From positions 64,001-128,000 of the forward strand of contig NZ_CP157522.1 in NCBI RefSeq assembly GCF_049075655.1: DNA of 64,000 bases, read 5' to 3'. Below, piece after piece: positions 1-64,000 of the stretch; the stretch's first letter is position 1, and the number at the start of each line of letters is the position of its first letter. A program made the position numbers and the translations under genes. The notes below the pieces were generated by a model. The model searched no databases and had not been told where the DNA came from. It saw only the letters and a list, made by a program, of their open reading frames with translations. This DNA comes from Methanothermococcus sp. Ax23 (GTDB taxonomy: Archaea; AGJL01; Methanococci; Methanococcales; Methanococcaceae).

Positions 1-1253
1 AAAATTTAGGAAAAGAAAAGCGAAATAAAATTCAAAAAGAATGGAAACTGTGCAAATCTGGCTCTACTGACATATATATAGCATTTTTTGAGTTGGGATA
101 TTATTTATTAAACGATACTGGAAAATTAGGATATATCACGCCCAACACCTATATAAAAACATCAGCAGGAAAAGATTTAAGACTGTTTATCAAAAATAAA
201 AAAATTTTGGAATTATTAATTGATTTTAGACATTACCAAGTATTCGAAAACGCCACTACCTATTCATTAATAACAATACTATCCAAATCATATAGACAAA
301 ATAAGTTTAAACTGTATTATGGAGACTCCAATAAAAAAATTAAATTCATAGATGAAATTGATTTAAACAATTTGAACGATAATAATTGGATATTATGCAC
401 CAATGATGTATTAATAAAGATTAAAGAGATAGAAAATAGAGGAGCTCCGCTTGGAAAGATAGCAGATATTCATGTTGGAATTACCACACTTGCAGATAGT
501 TATTACATATTTAAAGACCCCATACTTAAAGAAAAAACTGCAATAATAAAATTAAAGGATGGTAGGGAGTTTGAAATTGAAAAGGACATTTTAAAACCAA
601 TAGTAAAAGCATCAGTTTTAAAGAGCTCAGACGAGGAGCAAAATCGTTATGTAATTTTCCCATATAAACTTAAAAATAATAAACATGTAATAATACCCGA
701 AAATGAATTAAAAGAAAAATATCCTTTAACATACAATTATTTCCTAAAAATTAAAGATATATTACTTGCGAGAGATAAGGGCAAACCAAATCCAGTAGCA
801 TGGTATGCTTTTGGAAGAAGTCAAGGATTAGATACTTCATTTGGCAAAAAAATATTAACTTCACCGTTAAATAAAAAGCCAAACTTTATAGTATGGGAAA
901 AAGAAGATTATACATTTTATGCTGGATATTGTATAAAATACGATGGAGATTTGTATGAATTGGCAAAGGAATTAAACAGTTCAGATATGGAATTTTATAT
1001 AAATCATGTAAGTAGGAGTTATCAAAATAATTATAAATCATATTCAAAAACATTCATTAAAAATTTTGGAATATCCAACCCGAAAATTATTGGAAAATTT
1101 AAAAATAATCGCACATCGGTAAAAGAAGTCAATAAAAATGGGGATAACTATAAAGATAAAAATAAAAATAAGGGCAAAAATACCAAACAAACTACATTAA
1201 CAAATTATTTAACTAAGGCAGATGATTTATTAAGTATAAATACCAATCTATAA
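1..1253 (+). CDS. N6-adenine DNA methyltransferase (Eco57I/TaqI-like gamma class), 5'-truncated by window edge
   Basis: Frame is open from the window start (..GSTDIYIAFFELGYYLLNDTGKLGYITPNTY..); typical post-NPPY MTase segments, DF...QVFENATTY and a TaqI_C-like TRD (WYAFGRSQ). Confidence 0.8.
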   Translation, partial: NLGKEKRNKIQKEWKLCKSGSTDIYIAFFELGYYLLNDTGKLGYITPNTYIKTSAGKDLRLFIKNKKILELLIDFRHYQVFENATTYSLITILSKSYRQNKFKLYYGDSNKKIKFIDEIDLNNLNDNNWILCTNDVLIKIKEIENRGAPLGKIADIHVGITTLADSYYIFKDPILKEKTAIIKLKDGREFEIEKDILKPIVKASVLKSSDEEQNRYVIFPYKLKNNKHVIIPENELKEKYPLTYNYFLKIKDILLARDKGKPNPVAWYAFGRSQGLDTSFGKKILTSPLNKKPNFIVWEKEDYTFYAGYCIKYDGDLYELAKELNSSDMEFYINHVSRSYQNNYKSYSKTFIKNFGISNPKIIGKFKNNRTSVKEVNKNGDNYKDKNKNKGKNTKQTTLTNYLTKADDLLSINTNL

Positions 1254-1261
1254 GGGATAAA

Positions 1262-2836
1262 ATGAAATTTACAGATGCAATATTAGATTTTTTAATGGAA
1301 AATAATATAAAAACAGTTTTTTCATATCCTGGGGAGCAGATTCTTCCATTGTATAATGCCCTAAATGAATCATCTATAAAAAATATAATGGTCAGGCATG
1401 AACAGGGAGCTCTACACATGGCAGATGGATACAGCAGAATTACAAACTATGTTGGAGTATGTTTGGCAACTGCGGGACCTGGTGCTACAAATTTGATGAC
1501 AGGCGTTGCTACGGCATACAAGGATTCATCATCTGTAATTGCCATTACTGGAAGATGCGAGCGAAAATACATAAATAAGAATTATTTTCAAGAAATGCAA
1601 ATGGATTTTTTAAATATATATAAAGGATACTTTGTAGATAAACCAGATGTAAGTTATTTCAAGAATGCACTTTCTGAAAGTTTAAATAGTAAAAAACCCA
1701 TTCATTTAAATGTCCCAAGTGATGTTCTTAAATTGGATGCAGATGATTACTCCACTAAATATGATGATGATAAAGATGAAGACATAAACTTAAAATGTGG
1801 CATAAATATAAAAGATATTAAAAATATTAAGGATATTAAAAAGCCATTATTGCTTATAGGTCAGGGCATTTATGGAACCTTATCATACAAAGAAATGCTG
1901 AAAATAAATAATATATTAAAAAACAGTAATATCCTCATTACAACAACCTATCCTGCAAGGGGAGTTATCGACGAAAAGGATAAAAACTGTTTAGGATTGA
2001 TTGGAAGAAGAGGAAACTTTATAGCAAATAAATACCTTTTGGAATGTGATGCCATATTTTCAATTGGTGCAAGTTTTTCATACAACACAATACCTGAAAG
2101 TATCCGAACAGAAGTTTTAAAGAAAATAATTGATTTAGATGCCAAAATTAATAATTTAAACGACATTAAGGCTTTGATTGACGCGTTAAATGATTTAAGG
2201 CATAGTTATACCCATGTAAATACAGATGGTAGCAATAAAGAAGACATTAGTAAATATAATTATAAATTAGACGAAAACCGAAGGTTTTCGTTGCTCGCTT
2301 GCTATCACAAGCGATTAGGTGATTATTCCCTAAAAATTAAGGAGATACTGGATAATTTACCAGATGACGCAATAATTACCACAGATGCTGGAAATCATAC
2401 GGTTTTTGTATCATTATTAAAAAAATGCGTAGTCCCAAGAAATATTATTTCATCTCACAGTATGGGAACCATGGGATTTGGACTTCCAGCTTCAATTGGA
2501 GTTAAATTTGGATGTTTAGATTATAACATTAATAGAGAAGTAGTTTCAATAAATGGTGATGGCGGTTTCCAGATGAATTTGCAAGAGCTCGCAACAGTAT
2601 CGGAAAATGATTTAAAAATACTTATTGTAATAATGAAAAACAACAGATTAAATGTATTTGGAGATATAAAGAACCCAGATTTCAACAAAATAGCAGATGC
2701 TTATGATATTGATAATGTTTATATAGAAGATATTGATGAGATAAGGGGAAACATAAAATATTATTTAAATAATAACAAACCTTATTTGATGGTAGTTGAA
2801 TGTGAAAATGAGGGGCTACCTAAACCTTTTGTTTAA
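1262..2836 (+). CDS. Thiamine diphosphate-binding acetolactate synthase large subunit-like protein
   Basis: YPGEQILP, RHEQGA.HMADGY, TAGPGATN, GTMGFGLPASIG and GDGGFQMN motifs; carries a 48 bp in-frame insertion. Confidence 0.9.
   Translation: MKFTDAILDFLMENNIKTVFSYPGEQILPLYNALNESSIKNIMVRHEQGALHMADGYSRITNYVGVCLATAGPGATNLMTGVATAYKDSSSVIAITGRCERKYINKNYFQEMQMDFLNIYKGYFVDKPDVSYFKNALSESLNSKKPIHLNVPSDVLKLDADDYSTKYDDDKDEDINLKCGINIKDIKNIKDIKKPLLLIGQGIYGTLSYKEMLKINNILKNSNILITTTYPARGVIDEKDKNCLGLIGRRGNFIANKYLLECDAIFSIGASFSYNTIPESIRTEVLKKIIDLDAKINNLNDIKALIDALNDLRHSYTHVNTDGSNKEDISKYNYKLDENRRFSLLACYHKRLGDYSLKIKEILDNLPDDAIITTDAGNHTVFVSLLKKCVVPRNIISSHSMGTMGFGLPASIGVKFGCLDYNINREVVSINGDGGFQMNLQELATVSENDLKILIVIMKNNRLNVFGDIKNPDFNKIADAYDIDNVYIEDIDEIRGNIKYYLNNNKPYLMVVECENEGLPKPFV
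2266..2318 (+). mobile_element. 43 bp double-hairpin micro-insertion with 5 bp target-site duplication (ATTAG)
   Basis: ATTAG|ACGAAAACC-GAA-GGTTTTCGT TGC TCGCTTG-CTATCA-CAAGCG|ATTAG; removing 48 bp leaves an intact reading frame. Confidence 0.75.
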
Positions 2837-2931
2837 GTGATAAAATTAATAAATATTTGGAATGATTGATTAAATTTATTTAAATAATCATAACTATTAA
2901 ACTAAAATCTGAATATAACGGAGGAATAAAT

Positions 2932-3798: not shown

Positions 3799-3887
3799 AA
3801 TAAATATCAAGTATAATAAATATTAATTATTTTTTGTTTATTCTTTTTTTATGAAAATTTATTTAATTTCTCTTTTAAAGTGGTAGT

Positions 3888-6245
3888 ATGATAAAAAAGA
3901 TAATTGTAAAAGGTATAGTCCAAGGCGTGGGATTTAGACCTTTTGTTTATAGAATTGCTAAAAATAATAATTTAAAGGGATATGTAAAAAACATGGGAAA
4001 TTATGTTGAAATAGTTGTAATGGGAAATAAAGACGATATAAACTCTTTTTTAGATGATTTAATGACTAAAAAACCACCATTAGCACAGATTAATGAAATA
4101 AATGTTTTTGATGAATTGAATGAATCCAATTACAAATCTAATTATGAGGATTTCATTATAGAAAAAAGTCAGGAAAATAAAGGTAATAAGGAAGAAGGAA
4201 CAATTCCACCAGATGTGGCAATATGTGAGGATTGTTTAAAGGAGATAATGGATAAAAACGACAGAAGATACAGATATCCATTTACTGCATGCACTAACTG
4301 CGGTGCAAGATTCACAATAGTAAAGGAGCTCCCATACGATAGGGAAAATACATCCATGGATGAGTTCCCATTATGCGAGGATTGTTTAAATGAATACAAA
4401 AATCCTATGGATAGGAGATTCCATGCTCAGGCGACATGCTGTCCAAAATGCGGTCCAGAGGTATTTTTAACAGACAAAAATGGGAATATTCTATATAAAA
4501 AAGATGATGCTGTCCAAAATGCTGTAAAACTTCTAAAAGATGGATACATACTTGCAATAAAGGGAGTTGGTGGAACTCATTTGGCATGCTGTTGTGATGA
4601 CGATAATGTGGTTTTAAATTTAAGAAACCGCCTAAACCGTCCAACTCAGCCCTTTGCTGTGATGACAAAACCAGAAAATTTAAATCTATTTGCCAATTTT
4701 GATGATGACGAGTTAAATCTTTTAAAATCGCCAAAACGACCTATTGTAGTCCTTGAAAAAAATGAAGATTATGATAAATATTTTTCAAAATATGTATCAA
4801 ATTTAAATTCCATTGGGGTTATGTTTCAGTATTCTGCATTACATCATCTTTTATTGGAAACTGATAAAATTGCATACATTATGACATCTGCAAACCTTCC
4901 AGGTCTTCCAATGGCTATAAAAAACGACGATATACTAAATAATTTAAAAGATATTGCCGATTATTTTTTGCTTCATAACCGTGAGATAGTAAATAGATGC
5001 GATGACAGCGTATTGAAGAAAATAAACAATAGAATGATATTTTTAAGGCGGTCAAGAGGATATGCACCAGAGCCCATTATTGTAAATAATAATCCAGCCA
5101 TTAAAAACAACGACAAAAATATATTATGCGTAGGTCCCGAGCTCAACTCAACGGCATGTTTAGTTAAGGGCAATAAGTTTTATTTGACTCAATATATTGG
5201 AAAAACATCCAAATACGAGACATTTAATTATCTCAACGATGCAATAAAGAATTTGATGAAAATTACAAATACAAATAAAATAGATGCGGTGGTCTGTGAT
5301 TTGCATCCAAACTACAATTCTACAAAACTTGCTTATGAATTGGCTGAGAGGTTTGGGGCGGAGCTCTACAAAATCCAACATCATAAGGCACATGCCTATT
5401 CATTGATGGGGGATAATGATGTATTTGAAGATGGCATTTTCATTGCCATTGATGGACTTGGATATGGTGAGGATGGAAATATTTGGGGTGGTGAGGTTTT
5501 AAAATACGATAAAAATAAAAATAAAATGGAAAGAATAGGACATTTAGAAGAGCAATATCAGGCAGGCGGAGATTTAGCTACAAAATATCCACTTAGGATG
5601 CTTTTATCCATATTGTATAAAAAATTAAGTCGTGATGAATTAATTGAGTTTATCAAAGGATACGACTTTTTCAGTGATAAGGATTTAAAGCTTATGCTGT
5701 TTCAATTGGATAAAAAAATTAATGTTGTTAATACCACATCATGCGGAAGAATACTTGATTCTGTCTCGGCGATGCTTTCGGTGTGCTACGAGAGAACCTA
5801 CGATGGAGAATACGCCATTAGGTTGGAAAGTGTGGCTGAGAACTTTGTAAAAAAATATCCAAAAGATTATAAAAAATGCGTGGAAATGGTTAAAAACGAT
5901 ATAAAAATAAAAAATAATATATTGAATACAACTGATTTGGTTTATAACTGTTATAAAATGCTATTGGGCGGATTTGAAAAGGAATTTATTGCCTATTATA
6001 TTCATTTAGCCCTTGCTGATGGACTTTCAGAAATTGCTATAAAAAACGCAGAACACGAAGGCATTAACTATATCGGCTTAACTGGTGGAGTTTCCTATAA
6101 TAAAATCATATCTGAGAGAATAAGGCAAAATGTGGAAAGTAATGGATTTAAATTTTTGTATCATAGGCGAGCTCCGAACGGTGATGGAGGTATTAGTTTT
6201 GGTCAGGGTGTTGGATATATTTTAAATAGATGCTATGACTATTAA
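3888..6245 (+). CDS. hypF: Hydrogenase maturation carbamoyltransferase HypF
   Basis: GIVQGVGFRPFVY acylphosphatase domain, two CxxC zinc fingers, DLHPNY, QHHKAH, GDGGISFGQ. Confidence 0.97.
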   Translation: MIKKIIVKGIVQGVGFRPFVYRIAKNNNLKGYVKNMGNYVEIVVMGNKDDINSFLDDLMTKKPPLAQINEINVFDELNESNYKSNYEDFIIEKSQENKGNKEEGTIPPDVAICEDCLKEIMDKNDRRYRYPFTACTNCGARFTIVKELPYDRENTSMDEFPLCEDCLNEYKNPMDRRFHAQATCCPKCGPEVFLTDKNGNILYKKDDAVQNAVKLLKDGYILAIKGVGGTHLACCCDDDNVVLNLRNRLNRPTQPFAVMTKPENLNLFANFDDDELNLLKSPKRPIVVLEKNEDYDKYFSKYVSNLNSIGVMFQYSALHHLLLETDKIAYIMTSANLPGLPMAIKNDDILNNLKDIADYFLLHNREIVNRCDDSVLKKINNRMIFLRRSRGYAPEPIIVNNNPAIKNNDKNILCVGPELNSTACLVKGNKFYLTQYIGKTSKYETFNYLNDAIKNLMKITNTNKIDAVVCDLHPNYNSTKLAYELAERFGAELYKIQHHKAHAYSLMGDNDVFEDGIFIAIDGLGYGEDGNIWGGEVLKYDKNKNKMERIGHLEEQYQAGGDLATKYPLRMLLSILYKKLSRDELIEFIKGYDFFSDKDLKLMLFQLDKKINVVNTTSCGRILDSVSAMLSVCYERTYDGEYAIRLESVAENFVKKYPKDYKKCVEMVKNDIKIKNNILNTTDLVYNCYKMLLGGFEKEFIAYYIHLALADGLSEIAIKNAEHEGINYIGLTGGVSYNKIISERIRQNVESNGFKFLYHRRAPNGDGGISFGQGVGYILNRCYDY

Positions 6246-6271
6246 TAAATTAGAAGCATTGAGGGGAGATT

Positions 6272-9200
6272 ATGGAAATAGAGCATATATTAATTAATAA
6301 AAATGTGTTAAAGGAGAGGTTAAGCAATTTTGATTTAAATGAAATACCAGATTTAGAGGAAAAACGAAAAATAATAGATAGTTGGATAACTGAAATAGAG
6401 GATAAAGGAATAGAAAAAATAAAAGAGGAATCATTAAAGGGTAAATTTTTAGAGGATATATTTTCAAAAGTATTGGGTTATAAATCAGTAATTGGAAATA
6501 AAGAATGGAATTTAGAAGTGGAGCAAAAAACACGGGTTGATAGTAAAAAGGCAGACGGTGCATTGGGATTTTTTAGCAATGATAAAAAAGATATTCATGC
6601 AGTAATTGAATTGAAAGATGGTAAAACCAACTTAGATTTAAAACAGAGCTCGCGAAAAGACAACAGAACACCAGTAGAACAGGCGTTTGATTATGCCACT
6701 AAATCGGGGAAAAACTGTAAATGGGTCATAGTTTCAAATTTTAAAGAGATACGACTCTATAATTACACAAATACGAGAATGGAAGAGTATCATCTTTTTG
6801 ATATATCAAAACTTAGGGATGATGAGAAATTTAAAGAATTTTATTATATATTGAACTTTAACAATTTAATAAATAAAAACGGAGAGTCAGAAACTGAAAA
6901 ACTTTGTTCTGAAACTGTAATTCGTGAAAAAGAAATTACTAAAAAGTTTTACAATGAAATTAAGAATATTAGGATAAATTTATTTGAGACGCTTAAAAAA
7001 GAAAATCCAAATATTGATGAGCTCACCTTATTTGAAAAGACACAGAAACTTATTGATAGGTTTTTATTTGTTTATTTTGCAGAGGATAAGGGAATTCTGC
7101 CACCAAATACGGTTTATAGAGTAAGTAAGGAGGCAAAATCGAGCGGATTTATAAAAATTACTCAATGGGATGCGTTTAAGCAATTATTTGAATATATTAA
7201 CGAAGGATGCCCCGACTTTGGAATATATGCCTATAACGGCGGTTTGTTTAAAAAGGATGAGGTATTGGACAATTTAAATATACCTGATGAAATTATTATG
7301 GAGCTCGTGCAATTATCGGAATATGATTTTGATGGGGATTTAAATGTTAATATTTTAGGGCATATATTTGAGCAGTCCATATCTGATATTGAGGAAATAA
7401 AGGCATCAATCAATGGAGAACCTTATGATGAAAAACAGGGGAAGAGGAAAAAGGACGGTATTTTTTATACTCCTGAATTTATAACAAGGTATATTGTTGA
7501 AAAATCCATTGGTGGATGGCTTGAAGATAGAAAAAGGGAAATAGGGATTGAATTATTTGAAAGTATATCTCCTGAACAGATGGGGAAAGATAAAATTAAA
7601 AAAGGAAAGAAATTTGAATATAAAAAGAATTCCAAATCATACAAATCGTTAATGGCGTGGAAAAAATATAAGGAGATTTTAAAGAACATTAAGGTAATAG
7701 ACCCCGCTTGTGGTTCTGGTGCGTTTTTAATTCAAGCATTAAATTATTTGGTTGAAGAAGGGGATAAAGTAAATAAGGCAATTAGGGAATTGCAGGGGGG
7801 AACAGAGGAATTATTCACATTAAAAGCGGATATTTTAAAAAATAACCTTTATGGAGTTGATATAAATAGGGAGTCCGTAGAAATTACAAAACTATCTTTA
7901 TGGCTTAATTCTGTTAGGAAAGGGGAAAAACTGACATCACTTGATGACAATATAAAATGTGGCAATAGTTTATTTTTTGATTGGCATGGTGAATTTAAAG
8001 AAATATTTGAAAATGGGGGCTTTGATGTTGTAATTGGTAATCCCCCCTATGTTAGACAGGAAAGAATTACCGAAATAAAACCAGAATTGGAAGGAAATTA
8101 TAAAACATACTCGGGAACAGCTGATTTATTTGTTTATTTCTATGAATTGGGATATAATATTTTAAAAGATGGGGGATATTTAGGATACATTACAAGTAAT
8201 AAATGGATGAGGGCGAAATATGGGGAAAATTTAAGGGAGTTTTTAAAGGAAAATGTATTAATAAGAGAGATTGTAGATTTAGGCGGTGCAAAAATCTTTG
8301 AAGATGCCAGTGTTGATACAAATATACTAATATTTAAAAAAGAAGATGATAAGGGAATTATTAGAAACAACAAATTTAAAGCAGTTTTATTTAATGATTT
8401 TAAAAATAATGAAGAGTTTGAGGAACATATAAAAAATAAAGGATTTACAATGTGTCAGAGCTCGCTAAGTAAGGACGGATTTATTCTTATAGATAAGAAT
8501 ATTTTAAATCTTAAAAAGAAGATTGAAAAAATTGGAATTCCTTTAAAGGATTGGGATATAAAAATAAATTTTGGAATTAAAACAGGCTTTAACGATGCCT
8601 TTATTATTGATGGAAAAACTAAGGATGAATTAATTAAAAAAGACCCAAAGAACAAAGAGATAATAAAGCCGATTTTAAGGGGAAGGGATATAAAAAGGTA
8701 TGGTTATGAATTTGCGGATTTATGGCTTATAAATACGCACAATGGATTAAAAAATAAAAATATTCCACCTGTGGATGTTCCCAAAGATTATCCTGTAATT
8801 TATGAATGGTTAAAACAATTTGAGGAAAAACTTAAAAAAAGAAGAGATAAAGGGGATAATTGGTGGAATTTAAGAAATTGTGCTTATTTAGAGGAATTTG
8901 AGAAAGAAAAAATAATCTTTTCTAGGATAGTTAAAAAACCCCAATTTTCATATGATGAAAATGGATGTTATGCAGAAGCTACAACTTACATTCTTACAGG
9001 AAATGAAAATTTGAAATATTTACTATTGCTGTTAAATTGTAGTGCAATATATAATATATTTTATAAATTCTATTCAGGTGGTGGCATAGATGGTGAAATT
9101 AAAATATATAAATTGAATGACCTACCTATCCCAAAAATCCCCGAAAACGAACAAATCCCATTCATAGAAAAAGCTGATAAAATGATTGAATTAAATAAAA

Positions 9201-12805: not shown

Positions 12806-12855
12806 AAATAACAGTAAAAACTAAAATAAAAAAAGGATAAAAAAATAAAATATAT

Positions 12856-13911
<1,056 letters not shown>

Positions 13912-46394: not shown

Positions 46395-46603
46395 TACATA
46401 AATCCTGTCTAAAATTAAACAATAAAGCCAAAACTAAAAGAAAAAATCATTAAGGAAGAGGTGTCAATAATTTAGAAGGATATTAAATGAGAGGAGCTCC
46501 TCCTTATATATAATATATGGCGGAGCTCTGATAATGAAATTTATAAAATTAATCTTTTAACCATGATGGTGGTTAAGGCTAAGTTTAGAAAATAGGTGAT
46601 TTC

Positions 46604-49826: not shown

Positions 49827-49915
49827 GATTTTAATGTTCCTTTTACTGAGCTCAGATTTAAGATGAATTATGTGAGCTGTTTATTTTTTAATTTTTTAAT
49901 TTAAAGGATGATACC

Positions 49916-50605: not shown

Positions 50606-50658
50606 ATTTTGAGCAATTTACACATTAAAAACAAGATATTGGTTAATAGGGGAATATT

Positions 50659-52900: not shown

Positions 52901-52902
52901 GG

Positions 52903-54057: not shown

Positions 54058-54067
54058 TTGTGAGAAT

Positions 54068-56260
54068 ATGAAGCTACAAAATCCATTTAAATTACAAAAT
54101 TGGAAATTTAAAAAATTTTTATTAATAATTTTGGGCATTCAATTATCTTTATTAGGGTTATTTACATTAAATAATTTAGGAATAGACATAACAATTTTAA
54201 GACCATTGATAGGATTTATATATATATCCTTCATCCCAGGATATTTGCTTCTAAGGATTTTAAGATTGCACAATTTAAGCAGTATTGAGAGTTTTTTATA
54301 TGCCCTTGGACTGAGTTTATTTATGGGTATGTTTGTTGGATTTTTGATGAATATGTTTTATCCAATTTTAGGCATTACAAATAAACCTATTGCAGAAATT
54401 CCAATAGTTTTAACTATGGCTGGAGTTGTGTTTTTATTGTGTATTATTGCTTATTTTAGAGATAAAAAATATAATAGTCCTGACTATATCAATTTAAAAG
54501 ATATTATAAATCCACAGGTTTTATTTTTAAGTTTAATTCCATTCATGGCAATATTTGGAACCTATTTAGTAAATTATTACCATAATAATATTTTATTAAT
54601 GATAATGATTGTTATAATTGCATTGATTGCATTAATTGTTGGATTTACAGATTGGATTGATAAGAAATATTATCCTTATGCTATTTGGGCAATTGCTATT
54701 GCATTAGTATGGCATATAATGCTAATAACTCCTTATGTAAATAACCATGATGGGGAAATGGTAGGTGCTAAATCAACAATAGAAAATGGATTTTGGAATT
54801 ATAATATATATGGGAACTATAATTCAATTTTAAGCAATAATGTATTTACCCCAATGGTTTATTTTATTTTGGGAATTAATCTAACTTGGGTTTATAAATT
54901 AATATTTCCACTATGGATATCAATATTTCCAGTTGTGATTTATGTTATTGTTAGGAAGTATTTAGATTGCAAAATGTCATTTTTATCTGCATTAGTTGTT
55001 ATTATCTCAGGTGGAATGGCATACATTAATACATTTACAGTAATTACTAAACAATTTATGGCGGAATTTTTTATGTCATTAATAATAGTTGCTATGTATG
55101 GTGATATAAATAGACTTAAAAAAATGATAATCACATTAATGTTTGGAATGGGCGTAATTTGGTCCCATTATGGAACATCTTATTTGTTTATGGCAGGATT
55201 ATTATTCACAGTAATATTTTTAAAAATTTATAAATTAATCGATAACAAACCAAATAATTACAATAACTCAAAAGAATTTTTATCATTTGCGTTAATATAT
55301 TTATTGTTGATATTATCATGGTATATGTATGTTTCAAGTTCTTCATTATTTAAATCAATTGTAGGTATCGGAAGTAGTGTCTTTGGCTCAATTTGGACAT
55401 CATTTTTAAGCCCTGATGCATCAAGAGGAGCATATATGATAGCTAAAAAATATTCTGAAGGATTATTATTGCTAATTAAATATATGAACCTGGGAATAGC
55501 GTTTTTTATGGTTTTGGGAATGTGTAAAACATTGTGGAACTATAAAAAATCAAAATTTGATGCTACCTATTTAGGGCTGTCATTGTATTTTTTAGGAATA
55601 CTTGTTGCCGCAGTAGTTTTACCATTTTTTGCAGTAATGGGTCCCGATAGACTATATATTTTAGCATTAATTATAACTTCCCCATTTTGTATAATTGGAG
55701 GAATACTCTTCTTTAAAATAATTTCAAAAATTTTTAGAAAGGATATTAAAACAAATAATCTTCTAAAAATAGTATGTGTTTATGTAATAATTTTAATGTT
55801 ATTTAATGTTGGATTTATTCAAGAACTTACAAAAGATCATCCGACTTCAATAGCATTAAGTCAGAATTCGGTGGATAAATATGGAACATTAGAAGACCGT
55901 GCAAGGTTATATAATCGATTAATTACTGAGTATGATATGCATGCAGTGAAATGGATGTCCCAATACGATAAGAAAAATAGTAATATTTATTATAATAGGG
56001 GGCGATCATCAGTAGGTATTATGCTTGATAATTATGGAGACATGTCTTTAAAAATAAAGGGGTTGAACGAACATACAAAATATATTGAAGAAAAATCATA
56101 CATTTGGCTAATGTATGTCAATCTCAAAAAAAATGTTGGGTTTGGAGTCATCCCTGGTGTAGCTGTATCATATTATTTTGATTTCTCAGAAGTTAAACCA
56201 TTATTAAAAAATAAAAACAAAATATACGATAACGGGGGAAGTCAAATATTATTATCTTAA
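54068..56260 (+). CDS. Polytopic membrane protein (DUF2206-like)
   Basis: Many TM helices, FIPGYLLL, SHYGTSY, C-terminal NKIYDNGGS. Confidence 0.75.
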   Translation: MKLQNPFKLQNWKFKKFLLIILGIQLSLLGLFTLNNLGIDITILRPLIGFIYISFIPGYLLLRILRLHNLSSIESFLYALGLSLFMGMFVGFLMNMFYPILGITNKPIAEIPIVLTMAGVVFLLCIIAYFRDKKYNSPDYINLKDIINPQVLFLSLIPFMAIFGTYLVNYYHNNILLMIMIVIIALIALIVGFTDWIDKKYYPYAIWAIAIALVWHIMLITPYVNNHDGEMVGAKSTIENGFWNYNIYGNYNSILSNNVFTPMVYFILGINLTWVYKLIFPLWISIFPVVIYVIVRKYLDCKMSFLSALVVIISGGMAYINTFTVITKQFMAEFFMSLIIVAMYGDINRLKKMIITLMFGMGVIWSHYGTSYLFMAGLLFTVIFLKIYKLIDNKPNNYNNSKEFLSFALIYLLLILSWYMYVSSSSLFKSIVGIGSSVFGSIWTSFLSPDASRGAYMIAKKYSEGLLLLIKYMNLGIAFFMVLGMCKTLWNYKKSKFDATYLGLSLYFLGILVAAVVLPFFAVMGPDRLYILALIITSPFCIIGGILFFKIISKIFRKDIKTNNLLKIVCVYVIILMLFNVGFIQELTKDHPTSIALSQNSVDKYGTLEDRARLYNRLITEYDMHAVKWMSQYDKKNSNIYYNRGRSSVGIMLDNYGDMSLKIKGLNEHTKYIEEKSYIWLMYVNLKKNVGFGVIPGVAVSYYFDFSEVKPLLKNKNKIYDNGGSQILLS

Positions 56261-57312
56261 ATTCCTTTTCCGCCCCTTCCTTTAATTCCATCAAAAACTG
56301 CTTTACAATAGGCTTTAAATAACTGGAAATTTTTCTTTAAAAAAATGAAATATATAAACTTTTTAACAGAGTCATAACTCAAAAACCAAATTAAAAATAA
56401 AATATAATCAATAAACGCATTATGTTTTCTTACAAATAATATTCTATTCCTTGTTTGATAATACACTGATGCAGGGGAACCATTTCCACTAACCCCAAGT
56501 TTATGCCACAAAATAGATTTAGGAATATAAACACATTTATAACCCAATTTTTTAGCTCTGATCGATAAATCACTATCTTCGTAACATGCAAAATACAATT
56601 CATCTAATCCTTTTAATTTTTCTAAAATTTCTTTTTTAAGTAACATCGAGCATCCAGTTATAAAATCAAATTCTTTTATTTTATTATATGCTCTATTATC
56701 TATTGTGTGGTCTCCCTCATGCCAACCGTATCCCGTTTTTGTATTGATTCCCCCTCCAGCAAACCAAACCACATCACTTCTTCCGTCATAATCATAATAA
56801 TAAATCTTACTTCCAACAATTCCAATCTTTTCATCACTTTCTGCAACTTTTACCATTTCAATTAAAAAATCTTTATCTACAACCGTATCATTATTTAACA
56901 ATAGAACATACTTAGAATTTAAAACATCCAAAGCAAATTTTATCCCAACATTATTCCCCCCAGCAAAACCATAATTATCTTTATTTTTAATTAAAATCAT
57001 TCTTTTATTTGGATTTAGTTTTTCATATTCTTCTTTTTCTAAAAATTTATTACTTCTTGCTTTATCTTCTGAAATTTCAAAAACTTTAATGGGTTTGTTA
57101 TCTTCCGAATATTTGAAAAATTTAGAATTTACTTCAATTGTTCCATTGCAATATTCTTTTATTTTTTCAATAGATTCATCCTTAGAATCATTATCTACAA
57201 CTATCATATCATAATTTGGATAGTTAATTCTATAAAGAGATTCTAAGCATTCTATTGTATCTCTCCAACCATTCCAGTTTAATATGATTATTGAAACTCT
57301 CGGATAGTCCAT
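56257..57312 (-). CDS. GT2 glycosyltransferase (rhamnosyltransferase-like)
   Basis: IILNWNG, NYGFAGGNN, LLNNDT, YEDSD, YY..RN; GGTGA RBS. Confidence 0.88.
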   Translation of the reverse strand: MDYPRVSIIILNWNGWRDTIECLESLYRINYPNYDMIVVDNDSKDESIEKIKEYCNGTIEVNSKFFKYSEDNKPIKVFEISEDKARSNKFLEKEEYEKLNPNKRMILIKNKDNYGFAGGNNVGIKFALDVLNSKYVLLLNNDTVVDKDFLIEMVKVAESDEKIGIVGSKIYYYDYDGRSDVVWFAGGGINTKTGYGWHEGDHTIDNRAYNKIKEFDFITGCSMLLKKEILEKLKGLDELYFACYEDSDLSIRAKKLGYKCVYIPKSILWHKLGVSGNGSPASVYYQTRNRILFVRKHNAFIDYILFLIWFLSYDSVKKFIYFIFLKKNFQLFKAYCKAVFDGIKGRGGKGI

Positions 57313-57325
57313 AATTTCACCAAAA

Positions 57326-58366
57326 TTAGTCATATAAAATTCTTCTGGGTTTTTCATTATCAAAATTTCCTTTCAATCCGTCCAAATAAGCATTTGTAAT
57401 AAATTTTATTCGTTTAATTTTGTTATCATTAAATAACAATATTCCTAAAATAGACTTAAGATACGATGTTGTTAGTTTAGTATAAAACTTTAGCTTATTA
57501 GTTGAGTATTTTTTACCTAACCAAGTAAGATTTCTACACCCATAGTAACTTAACCATAATTTTTCATAAGGAATACTATTAACAATTTTCCATAAGAATT
57601 TTTTTTTCTTCACATTTTTTTGGGACATCTCTTTATGGAATATTATACTATCTGTTATTAATAAAATCTTACTAACTTTTCTTAATCTAATGCAATATTC
57701 GACATCGTCATGATGTATAAAAAATTCCTTTTTTGGATAACCCATCTTTGATATCGCTTTTTTACTAACTAAAATACCAACAAAAGAAGCAAAATCTATG
57801 TTTAAAACTTTATTATTAAAATATTTTTCTAATGGTATGGGTTTTTGAATGAGAGGAAATATGTTATCAAAATCGAAATAGCCCCTATGGAATATTGAGA
57901 CTTCTTCTTTAACATCATTTACAACACATGCTAAAGCACTAACATCTTTTTCATTGAAATATTCACTTAACTTTTCTAAAGCATCCTCTTTTGGTTCTGC
58001 ATCATCGTCCATTAACCATAACCAGTCATATCCCTTTTCATAAGCCCTTTTAACTCCTTCATAAAACCCTCCAGCTCCTCCAGTATTTTCATGCATTCTG
58101 ACATAGTGGAGTTTTATATTTTCCCCATTTACTAAATTTTTAATCGTAAATGTTTTTTCCCAAGGTTCATTTAAATTCTCTGGTGGTAATTCCTTTATAT
58201 GCTCTTTTTCTAAAAGTAGTTGTGAAGTTCCGTCTGTTGAAGCATTGTCAATAAGATAGATAGCATCTATTGGTTTTGTTTGCTTTCTCAATGCATCTAA
58301 ACATTCAATAAGCAAATCTTTCCTATTGTATGTAACTACAACTGCACATGTGGTTTCTTTTTTCAT
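57326..58366 (-). CDS. GT2 glycosyltransferase (galactofuranosyltransferase-like)
   Basis: VVTYNR, NTGGAGGF..G, WLMDDD, FFIHHDDVEY; adjacent to glf. Confidence 0.8.
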   Translation of the reverse strand: MKKETTCAVVVTYNRKDLLIECLDALRKQTKPIDAIYLIDNASTDGTSQLLLEKEHIKELPPENLNEPWEKTFTIKNLVNGENIKLHYVRMHENTGGAGGFYEGVKRAYEKGYDWLWLMDDDAEPKEDALEKLSEYFNEKDVSALACVVNDVKEEVSIFHRGYFDFDNIFPLIQKPIPLEKYFNNKVLNIDFASFVGILVSKKAISKMGYPKKEFFIHHDDVEYCIRLRKVSKILLITDSIIFHKEMSQKNVKKKKFLWKIVNSIPYEKLWLSYYGCRNLTWLGKKYSTNKLKFYTKLTTSYLKSILGILLFNDNKIKRIKFITNAYLDGLKGNFDNEKPRRILYD

Positions 58367-58376
58367 AAGTAATCCC

Positions 58377-59483
58377 TTATTCACCTTTTAACTTATAATA
58401 CAACTCCAAAGCTTTCTTAACAGTTTCATCCATATTATAATATTTATATCCTGCCAACCTTCCAATAAAATATATTCTTTCATCTTTCAACTTATTAACT
58501 TCTTCCATATATTTACTAAGAATTCGTTTATTCTCTTCATTTAAAATTGGGTATGCTACAACACCAACATTGGAAGGATATTCCATACAAATGGTAGTTT
58601 TTTTATGTTCTTGGAATGTCATCTTTTTAAATTCTGTTATTCTTGTGAAATCATAGTTATTATTATAATTAACAACTGCAACTGGTTGATAATCTCCATC
58701 AAAAGTTTTAAATTCAAAGTTTAAACATCTATAAGGTAATTTACCATATTTATAATTAAAGAAATAATCAATTTCTCCAGTATAAATCATTAAATCATAA
58801 TCAATCCAATCAATAATTTCTTTATAGTCAGTATTTAACAAAATTTTGATATTCCTATTATTAAGCATCTTTTCAAACATTTTTGTATATCCTTCCTTTG
58901 GCATACCCTGGTATTTATCATTAAAATATCTATCATCCCTACTTATTACAATTGGCACCCTTGCAGTTACTGATTTATCAATTTCTTCTGGTTTTAAACC
59001 CCACTGTTTCATTGTATAATTTAAAAACACTTTTTCATAAATAAAATCTGCCAAATATTTCAAATCTTCATCATCAACATTTTTTAAATCTAAAATTGGA
59101 ATTCTCTTTCCATATCCAAACTGTTTTATTAATTTTTTTTCTAATTTTTCAGCATATTTTTTTGGAAATAATTTATATACTGTATTTAAATTAAATGGTA
59201 TTGGAACTAATTTTCCATCAATGTTTCCTAAAACTTTATGTTGATAATAAATCCAATCTGTGAAGTTAGATAAATAATTCCAAACATCTTCATAATTTGT
59301 ATGAAATATATGAGGACCATATTTATGCACTAAAATACCATGTTCATTATAATAATCGTAGCAATTTCCTCCAATATGGTTTCTTTTTTCTATTATCAGA
59401 ACATTTTTTCCTTCTGATGCAAATCTTTCTGCTAATGTTATTCCAGTAATTCCTGCTCCTATAATTATAATATCAGTTTTCAT
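58377..59483 (-). CDS. glf: UDP-galactopyranose mutase
   Basis: GAGITG, HIGGNCYD, HKYGPHIFHTN, YF.DKYQG.P, GRLA.YKYYNMD. Confidence 0.95.
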   Translation of the reverse strand: MKTDIIIIGAGITGITLAERFASEGKNVLIIEKRNHIGGNCYDYYNEHGILVHKYGPHIFHTNYEDVWNYLSNFTDWIYYQHKVLGNIDGKLVPIPFNLNTVYKLFPKKYAEKLEKKLIKQFGYGKRIPILDLKNVDDEDLKYLADFIYEKVFLNYTMKQWGLKPEEIDKSVTARVPIVISRDDRYFNDKYQGMPKEGYTKMFEKMLNNRNIKILLNTDYKEIIDWIDYDLMIYTGEIDYFFNYKYGKLPYRCLNFEFKTFDGDYQPVAVVNYNNNYDFTRITEFKKMTFQEHKKTTICMEYPSNVGVVAYPILNEENKRILSKYMEEVNKLKDERIYFIGRLAGYKYYNMDETVKKALELYYKLKGE

Positions 59484-59493
59484 ATTTCATACC

Positions 59494-60777
59494 TCATTTA
59501 GTTAATATTTTCTTCCATTTGATATACACATACATTGATAATGTAATAAATATTTCCGTAATTACTATGGATGTAGAAATACCAATATGCTTCCAAAATG
59601 GAACTAACACCAATGCTAAAATTATGTTAATAATACTACCTGCAACTATAATTTTTGTAAATGCTCTTTTATAACCAAATGTTAGCATTGTTTGAATACC
59701 CAATATATTGCTTAAACCAATAATAAACGGCAAAAATGCCAAAATTCTAATAACTATTATTGAATTGTAATATTGCTCCCCTAAAACTATTTTCACTATC
59801 AAATCTGCAAATATGAATATTAACAAAGAAAGAATAAATGTGAATGCCCCCACTCCTCTTATTAATTTTTTAATAACAGATACTGCTTTTTCTTTTGATT
59901 CTGATGCCAATCTACTAATGTAAGGATAAAATGTTTGAGATATTGGATTTAACATGCCCAAAAACGCCTGAATTAATGTATATCCTGCAGAGAAATATCC
60001 TACAATAGTATTATTCGTAAATATACCCAGTATGAATGTATTTGATGTGGTATATAAATTTATTGAAACCGTAGAAACAAATATATGCCATCCTTCCTTT
60101 AATTGATTAATGACCTCTATTTTAGATGGTATTTTAAAAACTACATCAAATTTTTTGAATATAAAAATTAAACTTAAAACTCCAGCCAATATATAACCCA
60201 AGGAGCTTATAAGTGGAACATAAATATAATCCGAAGCATCCCTTATAAAAACAAATATCGAAATTGTAAATACCGTTTTAGAAATTATATTTAAGAAGGT
60301 AATATATTTCATTCGTTCCATACCTTGAAAAAACCATACTGGAAACAAAACATTTCCTAAAACCACTCCAAAAGCAAATATATAAATAATCCAATTATGG
60401 CTAAATTTTTCAAATGAAAATACCACAATACATAATATTATAAAACTTAAAACCATAAAAACAATTTTTATAATCATTACAGAACTAAAAATTTCTGATA
60501 ATTTTTCTTTATTATCCCTATGTACTGCTACATCTCTTGTTGCGGATAAATTAAATCCATAATCAGTAATAATATTAAAATATCCGATAAACGCACTAGC
60601 AAAAGCTATAAGACCATATTTATCAGGACCCAAAACCCTAACTAAATAAGGAAATGTAATTAATGGTAAAATGTAATTTAGTCCCTGCAATGTAAAAAGA
60701 GATGCAAAATTTTCAAATAATCTTTTAACATCATCATTTTTCAGTTTTTCTTTTAATTTTTTAATAGTTAAATCCAT
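59494..60777 (-). CDS. Wzx-type polysaccharide flippase
   Basis: NY.LPLITFPYL.RVLGP..YG, DYGFNLSATR, WFFQG.ERM. Confidence 0.9.
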   Translation of the reverse strand: MDLTIKKLKEKLKNDDVKRLFENFASLFTLQGLNYILPLITFPYLVRVLGPDKYGLIAFASAFIGYFNIITDYGFNLSATRDVAVHRDNKEKLSEIFSSVMIIKIVFMVLSFIILCIVVFSFEKFSHNWIIYIFAFGVVLGNVLFPVWFFQGMERMKYITFLNIISKTVFTISIFVFIRDASDYIYVPLISSLGYILAGVLSLIFIFKKFDVVFKIPSKIEVINQLKEGWHIFVSTVSINLYTTSNTFILGIFTNNTIVGYFSAGYTLIQAFLGMLNPISQTFYPYISRLASESKEKAVSVIKKLIRGVGAFTFILSLLIFIFADLIVKIVLGEQYYNSIIVIRILAFLPFIIGLSNILGIQTMLTFGYKRAFTKIIVAGSIINIILALVLVPFWKHIGISTSIVITEIFITLSMYVYIKWKKILTK

Positions 60778-60779
60778 TA

Positions 60780-60953
60780 CTATCCCCATTTAATTAAGTA
60801 TTGATAAATATGATCAAAAGATAAAATACCAAACCCCTCAGCTCCTAAATATCTCGCCATGTAAATTGTATAAATAAAACCAAATAATTTGGATATAATA
60901 TTAGATACAAACAAAATCCCCGTGTTTTTAGCAATTCTTTTAACCGAGCTCAT
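60780..60953 (-). pseudogene. Truncated N-terminus of a second, archaeal-type flippase
   Basis: [46 protein letters not shown], then unrelated residues and a stop at 57 aa. Confidence 0.75.
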
Positions 60954-61190
60954 CTTAACCCCTATATATTAAAATTAAAACTTACAATTATATCATCTCC
61001 CCTTTTATTTAAATGTTTTCTGGTTTTTAACCTATAAAATAAATAATCCTTCGGAGCTCCCATATTTATATGGCTAAAAAATTAAACCTGAGTTCAGAAA
61101 ATATAAAATTGTCGGAGCTCCCAATTCCAAGATAATTGAAATATTTAAATAATAATTATGATATACTTGATATAATATTATGAGCTCACC

Positions 61191-61620
61191 ATGGTTGAAA
61201 TTATGGAATTATTTAAACAATTAAAGGAAGACTTCAAAGAATATAAAAATTCTTGCATGGGGATAATTCTATTTGGTTCTTACGCAACAGGAAATTCCAC
61301 TAAAAAAAAGCGATATTGATATATGTATTGTAAATCCAAAAGATAATAATGTCTATTTTGGAATATTAAAAAAGTTGGGAGGGAAATACGATGTAAAAAT
61401 TTTCGAGGAGCTCCCATTATATATTCAAATTAACATAATCAAAAACTTCAAGGGCAATGTGATATATGGGGAGGAGATAGAGCTCTCGGAGTATTTCTAT
61501 AAGTTTAGAAAACTTTGGAAAGATATGGAACATAGGATTAAGGAAAATACTTTTTCAAGCGTTAGGGAAAAAATTCTTTTAAGGAGGAAATTCAATGAAC
61601 GAATCAAAGAATTCCAGTAG
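61191..61620 (+). pseudogene. Minimal nucleotidyltransferase (MNT antitoxin), frameshifted in an A8 run
   Basis: GIILFGSYATG in one frame and SDIDICIV in another, joined across AAAAAAAA at 61302-61309. Confidence 0.8.
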
Positions 61621-61741
61621 ATTGAACCGATACTTTAAAAAACTTGAAAAGTTCGAAGAAGAATATGAAATAATCCAAAATAATGATATTATCGATGAGA
61701 TAGAACTAAATATATCAGAGCTCCCATATTTATATGGCTAA
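61595..61741 (+). pseudogene. Truncated HEPN/DUF86-type toxin N-terminus
   Basis: GGAGG RBS; RY..KLEKFEEEY..I....I.DEI, then runs into the repeat; downstream of MNT. Confidence 0.6.
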
Positions 61742-61873
61742 AAAATTAAACCTGAGCTCAGGAAAATAAACATGTCGGAGCTCCAACATCCTTAAAATTA
61801 ACTTAAAAAAATAAAATATATTAATTTTAATTTTGCATCTCTGAGCTCAGGGCATCCTATAAATAAAAAAATC

Positions 61874-62387: not shown

Positions 62388-62544
62388 ATTCTCACCTTTG
62401 ATATTATATTATCGAGCTCATCCTAACCACTTAAAATTAAATCAATATTATCATATATTTTCCCACTATTTTAATATTTCCAAATCTAAAAACCTGAGCT
62501 CATAAAAAATTATCGGAGATCCGATAAAAAAATAAAAATATTAT

Positions 62545-63102: not shown

Positions 63103-63281
63103 AATATCCCTCCACTTTTATCAATTACCTTTTAAATATTGTTTTTTGTTTATCATATTTGACACTCTGTTGTTTTTATGTCAAATATGTTGGACATGCT
63201 ATATAATACCAATGTTAGAGCTCCAACATTTAAAAAAATTTTTATGATAGGTTTTTTAAATACCCTATTTGGTGATACAGT

Positions 63282-63519
63282 ATGGCACTAATAAAAATTA
63301 CAAGAAACTGTCAAATAACCATCCCTTCTGAGATTAGAAAAAAAATGGGCGTCAAAGAAAGGGATTATCTTGATATAGAAATAGAAAATGGAAAAATAGT
63401 TCTAAAAAAAAATAGAAAAAATAGAAAAAAGAAGGAAAACGATTAAACTTGGTAAAAAAATTACCACTGATGAAATTGGGAAACTCATAGAAGAGGGGAT
63501 AGATGAATGTATGCAGTAA
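63282..63519 (+). pseudogene. AbrB/MazE-family antitoxin, frameshifted
   Basis: GGTGA RBS; KITRNCQITIPSEIRKKMGVKEGD; duplicated AAAAAATAG segment shifts the frame before RKTIKLGKK..EEGIDECMQ*. Confidence 0.7.
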
Positions 63520-63560
63520 TAGATACAAATGTGTTAATAAATGTAGGAATTCAATATTGA
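63507..63560 (+). pseudogene. VapC/PIN toxin stub
   Basis: MYAVIDTNVLI then a stop; overlaps the antitoxin end. Confidence 0.6.
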
Positions 63561-63568
63561 AACATTAC

Positions 63569-64000
63569 TTAAATAATCTTTTTTAACTCATTTAAACATT
63601 CATTAACATTTTTCAGTTTAATGCCTAACAATTTTTCAACTTTCCCACTATTTAGTGAAGTGTCTTTTGGTCTATTTGCCTTCCATCCTAATTCGGAGCT
63701 CCGTATAGGTTTTATCAAATCCTTATTTAAATCAAATATTTCAGCGACTTTTAACGCAAACTCATACCTACTTACCTTTTCACCGCCCCCAAAGTGCAAT
63801 AAATCATTAACATCTTTTTCATAAATCTTAATAATTCCATCGGTGAGCTCAGGCACATAGGTTGGGGTGTTCCACTGGTCAGTTACTGCATTTACTTCAT
63901 TTCCCTCTTTTAAGGTATTTAAAACCCACATGAAAAAATTGACTTTAACAGGACTTATAAAGTAAGGGACAGAAATCCTTACAATAGATGTCAAATCATA
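63569..64000 (-). CDS. rfbD: dTDP-4-dehydrorhamnose reductase, C-terminal part (runs off window)
   Basis: DQWNTPTY, SRYEFA, A.RP.DTSL; next to rfbC. Confidence 0.85.
   Translation of the reverse strand, partial: YDLTSIVRISVPYFISPVKVNFFMWVLNTLKEGNEVNAVTDQWNTPTYVPELTDGIIKIYEKDVNDLLHFGGGEKVSRYEFALKVAEIFDLNKDLIKPIRSSELGWKANRPKDTSLNSGKVEKLLGIKLKNVNECLNELKKII

Follow-up and report, generated by a model that had tools for sequence, protein, structure and literature searches.

What keeps a single six-base palindrome abundant throughout the genome of a methanogenic archaeon? The question is raised by the word GAGCTC in a stretch of 64,000 nucleotides from Methanothermococcus sp. Ax23 (hereafter G000), namely positions 64,001-128,000 of contig C1 in a 1.67 Mb genome of two contigs; this whole stretch is referred to as the window. 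Exactly 83 copies of GAGCTC were found in the window, the first at position 442 and the last at 63845-63850. Dinucleotide-preserving shuffles of the window gave a mean of 3.12 copies (standard deviation 1.8, maximum 8) and none of 100 shuffles reached 83. The original prediction, made by eye, had put the number of copies at about 83, the chance expectation at about 4 and the G+C content (GC) at about 30%, all of which agree with the count, the shuffles and the GC of 4-kb bins (0.27-0.34). It had also placed sites in all three reading frames and between genes. Using our own calls of open reading frames (ORFs), the 83 copies at 442..63850 divide into 33 in frame 0 (encoding Glu-Leu), 20 in frame 1 and 10 in frame 2, with the other 20 lying outside called ORFs. 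Its central proposal, that GAGCTC behaves like the frame-independent highly iterated palindrome HIP1 of cyanobacteria through a process acting on DNA, was supported by every test run. GAGCTC is almost certainly a genuine highly iterated palindrome of an archaeal lineage, made or kept by a sequence-specific force at the level of DNA.

A genome-wide excess independent of coding

Across the genome there are 2,089 copies of GAGCTC against 124.7 expected from base composition (16.75-fold), a density of approximately 1,250 per Mb or one site per 0.8 kb. No hexamer is more over-represented, and the next in rank, AGCTCC/GGAGCT (7.8-fold), merely overlaps GAGCTC. The excess is confined to the exact word. 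All 18 single-mismatch variants lie between 0.03 and 1.31 times their expectation, other xAGCTy words lie between 0.3 and 1.3 times, and the AGCT tetramer as a whole occurs at 1.03 times expectation with 41% of its copies inside GAGCTC. The flanks carry little information, with G at -1 or C at +1 in 37-39% of sites.

The excess is also independent of coding. Of the sites, 1,917 fall within our set of 1,621 long ORFs, which do not overlap and together make up 85% of the genome (116.9 expected, 16.4-fold), and 168 fall outside these ORFs or at their edges (9.5 expected, 17.7-fold). Genic sites were distributed over the frames as 1,078, 615 and 224. Shuffling synonymous codons within genes (n = 30) left a mean of 190 sites and a maximum of 214, compared with 1,918 observed, and each frame was enriched 7- to 13-fold over this control. 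Of 3,893 Glu-Leu dipeptides, 1,078 use GAG-CTC, whereas 66 would be predicted from codon usage, and 38% of all CTC codons are preceded by GAG. Loss of the enrichment under codon or k-mer controls, or confinement of the sites to one frame, had been named in advance as what would overturn the original prediction; neither occurred.

These figures bear directly on the view that no active process is involved and that the repeat simply follows from the usage of codons, dipeptides or lower-order k-mers, or from a family of dispersed repeats. Two observations speak for it: a maximal-order Markov model reduces the excess of GAGCTC to only 1.6-fold, and one cluster of sites in the window, at 60.9-61.9 kb, is there because a 75-bp element has been duplicated. 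The Markov result, however, is circular, because 2,085 of the 2,578 GAGCT pentamers (81%) lie inside the hexamer and owe their abundance to it. Moreover, non-coding DNA is enriched 17.7-fold, the codon shuffle leaves a 10-fold excess, the flanks are of low information and congeners of similar composition carry between 4 and 115 sites. As to a dispersed family, the 75-bp element (two direct copies of approximately that length within 61050..61790, each with two or three GAGCTC-type sites) has only these two copies genome-wide. We regard a by-product as refuted. An assembly artefact is excluded because five independent assemblies, as well as metagenome contigs, show the repeat. The second, small contig of G000 carries 4 sites in 7.7 kb.

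Sites are spread evenly. Spacing between next neighbours is near Poisson (coefficient of variation (CV) 1.09), there are 49-78 sites per 50 kb, and density is roughly uniform along the length of genes. Genes with a homologue in a congener hold 1.46 sites per kb and those without hold 0.98 per kb. There is very little doubt that the force acts on DNA and not on proteins or codons, and that the exact hexamer is maintained throughout long-resident DNA.

The even spread is interrupted by islands. The longest GAGCTC-free stretch in the genome, 11.1 kb with a GC of 0.25-0.29, lies inside the window at 49854..60945 (C1:113848-124946). Judging from their N-terminal sequences, its genes appear to be of glycosyltransferase-like, polysaccharide type, and we read the island as recently acquired DNA. 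Another site-free stretch, of 5.3 kb, houses a Type III Mod-like methyltransferase (candidate B below), and stretches of 5-11 kb without GAGCTC are tolerated in G000. A lack of the motif marks DNA as a recent acquisition, as it does for HIP1. Several families of near-identical transposase/TnpB-like ORFs, present in many copies, mostly hold no site despite site-rich surroundings, which is consistent with recent spread.

Some local features of the window can be added here. Extended palindromes were located by sequence wherever the original prediction had reported them: the 12-bp GCGGAGCTCCGC at 12966..12977, TCGGAGCTCCGA at 19806 and 47645, GAGGAGCTCCTC at 46491 and CTGAGCTCAG at 49846 and 61841, with a further copy of the last at 61752. 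The accompanying remark that sites are often extended did not hold, since genome-wide the share of coding sites with an extension of 1 bp or more is 30%, near the 28% expected by chance. The two 75-bp repeats bracket a short nucleotidyltransferase-like ORF that is apparently frameshifted into pieces of 42 and 115 amino acids (aa); the repeats and the broken ORF could be a small cassette or the remnant of a toxin-antitoxin system.

Distribution, conservation and turnover among relatives

GAGCTC was counted in 40 genomes of the order. Five were enriched, namely G000 (2,089), G012 (2,070), G010 (1,645), G013 (1,515) and G003 (1,321), and the rest contained 4-229 copies. Some of the latter fall far below expectation (G008 with 9, G005 with 14 and G007 with 4). 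The form of the repeat also differs between carriers. In G010, 1,259 of the 1,645 sites belong to the 8-mer GGAGCTCC, at approximately 800 per Mb; an 80-kb sample of this genome holds 67 copies of the 8-mer, often within GGGAGCTCCC, where about 0.1 would be expected. GGAGCTCC is a dialect of the same core, and metagenome contigs related to G010 and to G013 carry the matching dialects.

At the other extreme, G005 avoids AGCT (0.11 times expectation) yet tolerates GATC and GTAC (1.0-1.2 times), the opposite of G000. Its depletion in GAGCTC arises because AGCT itself is avoided. A related metagenome contig (locus L179) has no AGCT in 7 kb. Within a single genus, then, some members have the AGCT core in great excess in one particular context and others have purged it. 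G000 for its part avoids GATC (0.03 times expectation), GTAC (0.07), ACGT (0.10), CGCG and GCGC (0.13) and CTAG (0.14), together with CTNNAG/GTNNAC six-mers (CTGCAG, CTCGAG, CTATAG, CTTAAG, GTGCAC, GTATAC, GTTAAC and GTCGAC, 0.03-0.14), which look like the footprints of several past or present restriction systems.

The relationships of the carriers were examined with a single-gene FastTree phylogeny of PurL, comprising 30 of the 39 genomes with a match. Genomes for which no locus was extracted (G028, G034), with split genes (G002, G036) or without a match (G001, G037) were excluded, as were five whose match, at 33-37% identity, is probably a different paralogue (G014, G016, G019, G020, G040). 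With supports of 0.93-1.0, G013 branches first, followed by G010 and then by a split between the trio G012/G000/G003 and a clade of seven genomes that lack the repeat; this order rests on the single gene PurL. Under such branching the repeat either arose once and was lost completely once, or arose several times. The trait is, with high confidence, confined to one subclade of the order. This restriction, the 8-mer dialect and the lead described in the next section all go beyond what the original prediction foresaw.

The PurL-like gene itself lies in the window on the forward strand (19949-22153), with GAGCTC at 20786, 20927, 21884 and 22002. Two frame-0 Glu-Leu sites were placed by ortholog alignment at approximately 20923..21064; they correspond to alignment columns 975 and 1116, the AEL and YEL peptides, where non-enriched congeners have GAACTT or GAGATT. 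The same gene shows gains that alter the protein in other carriers: SEMC to SELC (GAAATG to GAGCTC) and SETSG to SESSG in G010, and YRSTK to YRSSK in G013.

Conservation was assessed over 400 kb aligned to G012 at 84% nucleotide identity, in which 300 sites are shared, 89 are found only in G000 and 76 only in G012. Sites of G000 were conserved in 77% of cases, compared with 42% for all hexamers and a median of 39% for hexamers with four G/C, among which GAGCTC ranks first of 72. Of 90 G000 sites that were not conserved, 42 had a counterpart in G012 that differed at 3-5 positions out of six, against about 10% of cases for control hexamers, and similarity in the flanks was like that of controls (0.824 vs 0.801 at distance 3). 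With several positions different and flanks near normal, change is focused on the hexamer itself and runs in the direction of the motif.

How the motif is fitted into proteins was examined in 1,125 ortholog pairs between G000 and the non-enriched G005. Glu-Leu dipeptides are conserved equally whether encoded by the motif (54.5%) or otherwise (54.0%). In frame 1, the tripeptide [GR]A[LPHQR] is conserved in 44.5% of motif-encoded cases (n = 474) against 63.7% of others (n = 168, p = 2e-5), and in frame 2 Ser-Ser is conserved in 28.9% (n = 142) against 45.5% (n = 898, p = 2e-4). The typical changes at motif-encoded residues are V, T or S to A and T or N to S. We are highly confident that the motif enters frame 0 through synonymous recoding of Glu-Leu, and frames 1 and 2 at a cost in amino acids. 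The original prediction had suggested that GAGCTC replaces usually conserved residues and had proposed looking for excess nonsynonymous gains in orthologs, and that excess is what frames 1 and 2 display. Both of its examples, frame-1 sites on the forward strand, stand up against G005. In the acetolactate-synthase-like gene (1262-2836), the site at 1407..1412 encodes G-A-L within RHEQGALHM, where G005 has RHEQGAVHM, and in the HypF-like gene (3888-6245) the site at 6169..6174 encodes R-A-P within RRAPNGDGG, where G005 has SRVPNGDGG with V before P.

A different picture emerged from G003, compared over 284 kb at 88% identity: 225 sites are shared, 115 are found only in G000 and 31 only in G003. 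Polarising changes with G012 as outgroup over 62 kb gave 21 losses and 1 gain in G003 (binomial p = 1e-5), against 6 losses and 7 gains in G000 (p = 1.0). The sites lost in G003 differ mostly by single transitions, and GAGCTC is the most asymmetric (109 vs 31, a ratio of 3.5) among 107 comparable hexamers, whose median is 1.22. These counts indicate that G000 is at equilibrium, whereas G003 has lost the maintaining force. At closer range, near-identical metagenome contigs (96-99%) kept 15 of 15 comparable sites, and none of 187 differences fell in a site; with about 1.7 expected, this comparison is underpowered.

Much of this behaviour recalls a DNA-uptake or recombination signal resembling the DNA uptake sequences (DUS) of Neisseria and the uptake signal sequences (USS) of Pasteurellaceae. 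No base modification would be involved; a protein of the cell surface or of recombination would favour DNA with GAGCTC, fragments bearing a site would be imported and recombined more often, and the motif would spread by molecular drive. Natural transformation via type IV-like pili has been reported in Methanococcales. The density of one site per 0.8 kb and its even spread in coding and non-coding DNA, a placement that is mainly compatible with proteins (frame-0 Glu-Leu being conserved like controls), the lineage dialect GGAGCTCC and the site-free foreign islands would all fit, and the many gains that differ at several nucleotides together are like imported patches. HIP1 has itself now been proposed as an uptake sequence (PMC13756078). 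However, the sequence around lineage-specific sites is only as divergent as that around control hexamers, and hence gives no sign of imported tracts. Known uptake sequences are non-palindromic and 9-12 bp long, a 6-mer discriminates weakly, no competence gene or receptor was found here (none was sought), and the loss of sites in the close relative G003 is left unexplained. We consider this explanation unlikely.

Candidate mechanisms

A lead to the maintaining force lies outside the window, at C1:1,537,329-1,542,521, where four genes encode a DUF6884/DpdC-like protein, a UvrD/AddA-like helicase, a PD-(D/E)XK nuclease and DpdA. The DpdA protein (g1502) matches the NCBIfam equivalog NF041059 at 426.6 bits (cut-off 200) and the PADLOC DpdA model at 411 bits, and aligns over its full length to the DNA-guanine transglycosylase of PDB 7UI4 (E = 1e-80). 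The likeness of the DUF6884 protein to DpdC is weak (E = 4.6e-7); the helicase gives partial matches to AddA and RecB models, and its gene carries 8 sites in 2.3 kb. QueC, the sole gene of the preQ0 pathway that was sought, is present in G000 (219 bits), and preQ0 should therefore be available.

DpdA occurs in 4 of 41 genomes, namely G000, G013 (81% identity), G010 (70%) and G032 (60%), and the helicase follows the same pattern in the five genomes searched for it. The same neighbours flank the cluster in G000, G013 and G010, which places it in the ancestor of the enriched clade. In the site-losing G003 the assembled locus lacks the cluster, with 32 bp between the flanking genes, and so do the assembled loci of the non-enriched G005, G009 and G011. 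In G013 the cluster holds 15 sites in 5.3 kb (Poisson p = 1e-4). Moreover, the DpdA site in Salmonella is reported to be CAGCTG, the PvuII site, in which the central G-C pairs are essential and the outer ones contribute (PMC10164549). GAGCTC shares with it the AGCT core and the format of a palindromic hexamer.

From these elements a mechanism can be proposed. GAGCTC would be recognised by a chromosomal module built around a DNA-guanine transglycosylase of the DpdA type, which would swap the central G for a 7-deazaguanine made from cellular preQ0. Sites so marked would act as a dense label of self, and marked DNA would fare better because the neighbouring helicase-nuclease leaves it intact, because uptake and recombination favour it, or for both reasons. 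This advantage would keep site density high, and loss of the module would lead to erosion of the sites. We hold the mechanism as a tentative possibility. That the palindrome is the footprint of DpdA writing 7-deazaguanine at the central G of GAGCTC/GGAGCTCC, filling the genome with a self-mark despite the cost to proteins, is slightly more doubtful. The statement as a whole, repeat phenomenon plus DpdA mechanism, is a possibility that we put only a little higher, and still on the doubtful side.

Several observations weigh against this reading. One concerns G012, which has 2,070 sites and no cluster: its absence is clean (7.3 kb, with a 40-bp junction), and the only two TGT genes in this genome are both of the tRNA type. 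G012 also looks nearly stationary with respect to G000 (89 G000-only vs 76 G012-only sites; 16 vs 7, p = 0.09). The mechanism thus requires a very recent loss in G012, a separate event from that in G003 since the boundaries of the two deletions are unlike. Conversely, G032 possesses the cluster, in a different genomic context, with 130 copies of GAGCTC and no other hyper-abundant palindrome evident in 12.6 kb. Further afield, 24 DpdA loci from other phyla showed no palindrome above about 5-fold in up to 21 kb each, so that possession of the module is not in general enough to give rise to such a repeat; in 13 of the 24, DUF6884, helicase and DpdA occur together. The association within the clade is essentially one phylogenetic event, for which a Fisher p of 0.004 overstates the case, and many clade-specific genes would share the distribution of the cluster. 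The cluster was, furthermore, picked from among the genes lacking in G005 after its function and site density had been seen. None of its four genes is DpdB-like, though no genome-wide search for DpdB was made. Site-free islands of up to 11 kb persist, so that DNA does not strictly need a dense mark in cis. Modification of GAGCTC is itself a prediction from sequence.

The gene-content screen from which the cluster emerged found 368 of the 1,621 G000 ORFs to be without a good homologue in G005, 206 of them in native context; some of the 368 are artefacts, being long and apparently intein-bearing genes that failed the coverage cut. A reduced screen over 24% of G012 yielded nothing better than the DpdA cluster. 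G000 also has a second, weak TGT-like ORF (C1:813616-814239, 336 aa, 22 bits to PF01702) in a 7-kb GAGCTC-free stretch (C1:809168-816163), which may be a second, recently acquired gene for DNA modification. One of the 24 further loci belongs to a cyanobacterium, the only one among them: Oscillatoria sp. PCC 10802 (locus L206), which has a DUF6884 gene in the locus. RCCGGY occurs 136 times in these 21 kb against 27 expected (5-fold), and the paper by Elhai singles out this strain for the alternate hyper-abundant palindrome rCCGGy, a curious coincidence that speaks for the DpdA lead.

The retention of sites by G012 without the cluster would be accommodated if GAGCTC were instead the binding site of a sequence-specific chromosomal protein, with a role in the nucleoid, in segregation or in the loading of replication or repair factors, each copy being under weak selection. 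An exact hexamer with the specificity of a restriction enzyme, its even spread, its strong conservation in coding and non-coding DNA alike and the greater density in core genes (1.46 per kb) as against accessory ones (0.98 per kb) are in keeping with such a protein. However, no candidate has been identified, and selection on each site would have to change amino acids and drive gains of several steps although one-mismatch variants confer nothing. The tolerance of 5-11-kb islands without sites and the complete loss in the seven-genome sister clade also fit poorly, leaving this explanation distinctly improbable.

The mechanism favoured for cyanobacteria in Elhai's model is that a methyltransferase marks the palindrome, here GAGCTC or AGCT, and that methyl-directed or very-short-patch-like repair converts near-cognate words to it. 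HIP1 presents the same phenomenology in abundance, palindromy, conservation, lineage variants and decay (PMC4390886, PMC5861425), a review tabulates AGCT-specific N4-methylcytosine (m4C) methyltransferases for several archaea (PMC11033074), and the strong avoidance of AGCT by some congeners (0.11 times expectation in G005) implies that AGCT-directed restriction exists in the group. Methylation-directed repair had also been among the processes suggested by the original prediction, and the genome gives this option no support. Profile searches of G000 found no PF00145 C5 methyltransferase (the control matched in 9 of 14 reference genomes), no MutS_V and no NucS/NucS_C. The neighbouring words GAGTTC (0.85) and GAACTC (0.90) are not depleted.

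The recognisable DNA methyltransferases of G000 are a PF01555 enzyme (candidate A), a Type III Mod-like enzyme (B), a Type I HsdM (D) and three of Eco57I/MmeI type. Of the latter, candidate E is an MmeI/Eco57I-type N6-adenine methyltransferase fusion of 1,078 aa in the window (6272..9508, forward strand; Pfam Eco57I, MmeI_Mtase, TaqI_C and MmeI_N). Candidate F is an Eco57I/TaqI-like methyltransferase of 567 aa (from Pfam matches); the 3' part of its gene occupies 1..1253 on the forward strand and the start lies 450 bp upstream of the window. E and F lie within 9 kb of each other, are patchy in relatives and have a native density of sites (4 and 3, respectively). As the cognate enzyme, E was rejected because in the five genomes searched it had a 54% partial match in G013, weak matches in G012, G003 and G008 and none in G010; F because its close homologues among 41 genomes are confined to G000 and G003 (86%). 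Candidate A, considered as the cognate METHYLTRANSFERASE, occurs in G000 and G003 and not in G010, G012 or G013, and candidate I (Eco57I/TaqI_C) is present in G013, by its N-terminal half only in G012 (second contig), and was not found in G010 or G003. None of these four profiled enzymes is therefore common to the five enriched genomes, which is also how the proposed phylogenetic profiling of methyltransferases turned out. B and D were profiled only partly; B sits in a site-free island, and the HsdS partner of D is only 43% identical in G012. The ortholog of A in the site-losing G003 (contig C37, 92% identical) has an in-frame TAA stop and may be a pseudogene.

Published methylation data add a further point against this model. 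The single-molecule real-time (SMRT) methylome of Methanococcus aeolicus PL15/Hp, in the part of the report available, lists m4C in CTAG, N6-methyladenine (m6A) in GTNAC, GCACY and CGAG and 5-methylcytosine (m5C) in ACGT, with neither GAGCTC nor AGCT among the motifs, although this strain may not carry the repeat (PMC10113651). A methyltransferase coupled to repair is, in our estimation, very unlikely. The PF09566 (RE_SacI) endonuclease gave no match in 41 genomes, a result that is uninformative as 14 control genomes were silent too. Two other palindromes were considered and rejected: TAGCTA, as an alternative repeat on the AGCT core, looked enriched in one 5-kb locus of G038 but reaches at most about 2- to 3-fold in whole-genome counts, and CTGCAG, as a repeat of G032, numbers 304 copies, like the sister genomes (93-288).

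Ranked by probability, the DpdA self-mark comes first as a tentative candidate, followed by uptake or recombination, a chromosomal binding protein and a methyltransferase with repair; an artefact has practically no chance, and what probability remains belongs to something else.

We found no publication describing an archaeal GAGCTC repeat in a literature search that left out subscription journals, REBASE and supplementary tables, and archaea go unmentioned in the available portions of the HIP1 literature (PMC4390886, PMC5861425, PMC13756078). HIP1 has gone unexplained for three decades and has been regarded as a peculiarity of cyanobacteria; the same phenomenology now appears in a clade of archaea. 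Here, a single genus offers natural contrasts, including carriers, a dialect carrier, a lineage losing its sites and congeners with complete loss or avoidance of AGCT, and with these the question can be put to the test through comparative genomics as well as simple bench assays on methanogens that can be grown in culture. The repeat, which is old and actively maintained, shows that a process at the level of DNA can be powerful enough to alter proteins, and absence of GAGCTC provides a practical marker of foreign DNA in these genomes. If true, the DpdA lead would be the first link between 7-deazaguanine DNA modification and the genome-wide evolution of a word. HIP-type repeats in general could then be densities of self-marking tied to base-modification modules, beyond methylation; the pointer to this is Oscillatoria sp. 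PCC 10802, with its 5-fold RCCGGY. In genetic work, a site that recurs every 0.8 kb and may be modified would also matter for restriction barriers and transformation.

Comparison with known systems

Several known systems resemble the GAGCTC repeat in part. In Escherichia coli, Dcm/Vsr very-short-patch repair skews words related to CCWGG, to a small effect. The likeness lies in a repair bias that is tied to a modified palindrome and alters word abundance genome-wide; however, that system needs a C5 methyltransferase and Vsr, whereas G000 lacks PF00145 (Vsr was not searched) and the would-be precursor words GAGTTC and GAACTC are not depleted. Chi, with RecBCD or AddAB, is likewise a short, over-represented word of self that works with a UvrD-family helicase-nuclease. 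Unlike GAGCTC, Chi is asymmetric, non-palindromic and strand-skewed, occurs about once per 5 kb and has no link to base modification.

The dpdA-K cluster of Salmonella Montevideo resembles that of G000 in its DpdA equivalog, its supply of preQ0 and its adjacent helicase and nuclease genes. The level of bacterial Dpd modification, approximately one per 1,000 nucleotides, is of the same order as the density of GAGCTC in G000, and hyper-abundance of the target is not reported for bacterial Dpd hosts in the available part of that source (PMC10164549). The cluster of G000 differs in being a compact set of four genes, with no DpdB seen in it and a protein only weakly like DpdC. The DUS and USS share with GAGCTC a density of about one per kb, genic and intergenic positions, dialects, placement that proteins tolerate and absence from foreign DNA; they differ in their length of 9-12 bp, in being non-palindromic and in having a known competence receptor, where GAGCTC is an exact 6-bp palindrome.

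The closest likeness is to HIP1 (GCGATCGC) and the alternate HIPs of cyanobacteria. Both are GC-rich palindromes present at hundreds to thousands per Mb, in all reading frames and between genes, and both are more conserved than control palindromes (PMC4390886, PMC5861425). Palindromic extensions or variants, loss in some lineages and absence from acquired islands are also common to the two. The archaeal repeat differs in sequence and has a 6-bp core in most carriers. HIP1 has a reported quasi-periodicity at the kilobase scale, compared with the near-Poisson spacing of GAGCTC (CV 1.09). A cognate, often orphan, DNA methyltransferase for the motif or its core would be expected wherever a HIP-type motif is abundant, whereas G000 has no C5 methyltransferase or MutS_V and the carriers have none in common among the four enzymes profiled; an unrecognised enzyme is possible, as specificity is unreadable from sequence. 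In copy number, in independence of frame that extends to non-coding DNA and in conservation above controls, GAGCTC matches the HIP type, and it is an archaeal analogue of HIP1.

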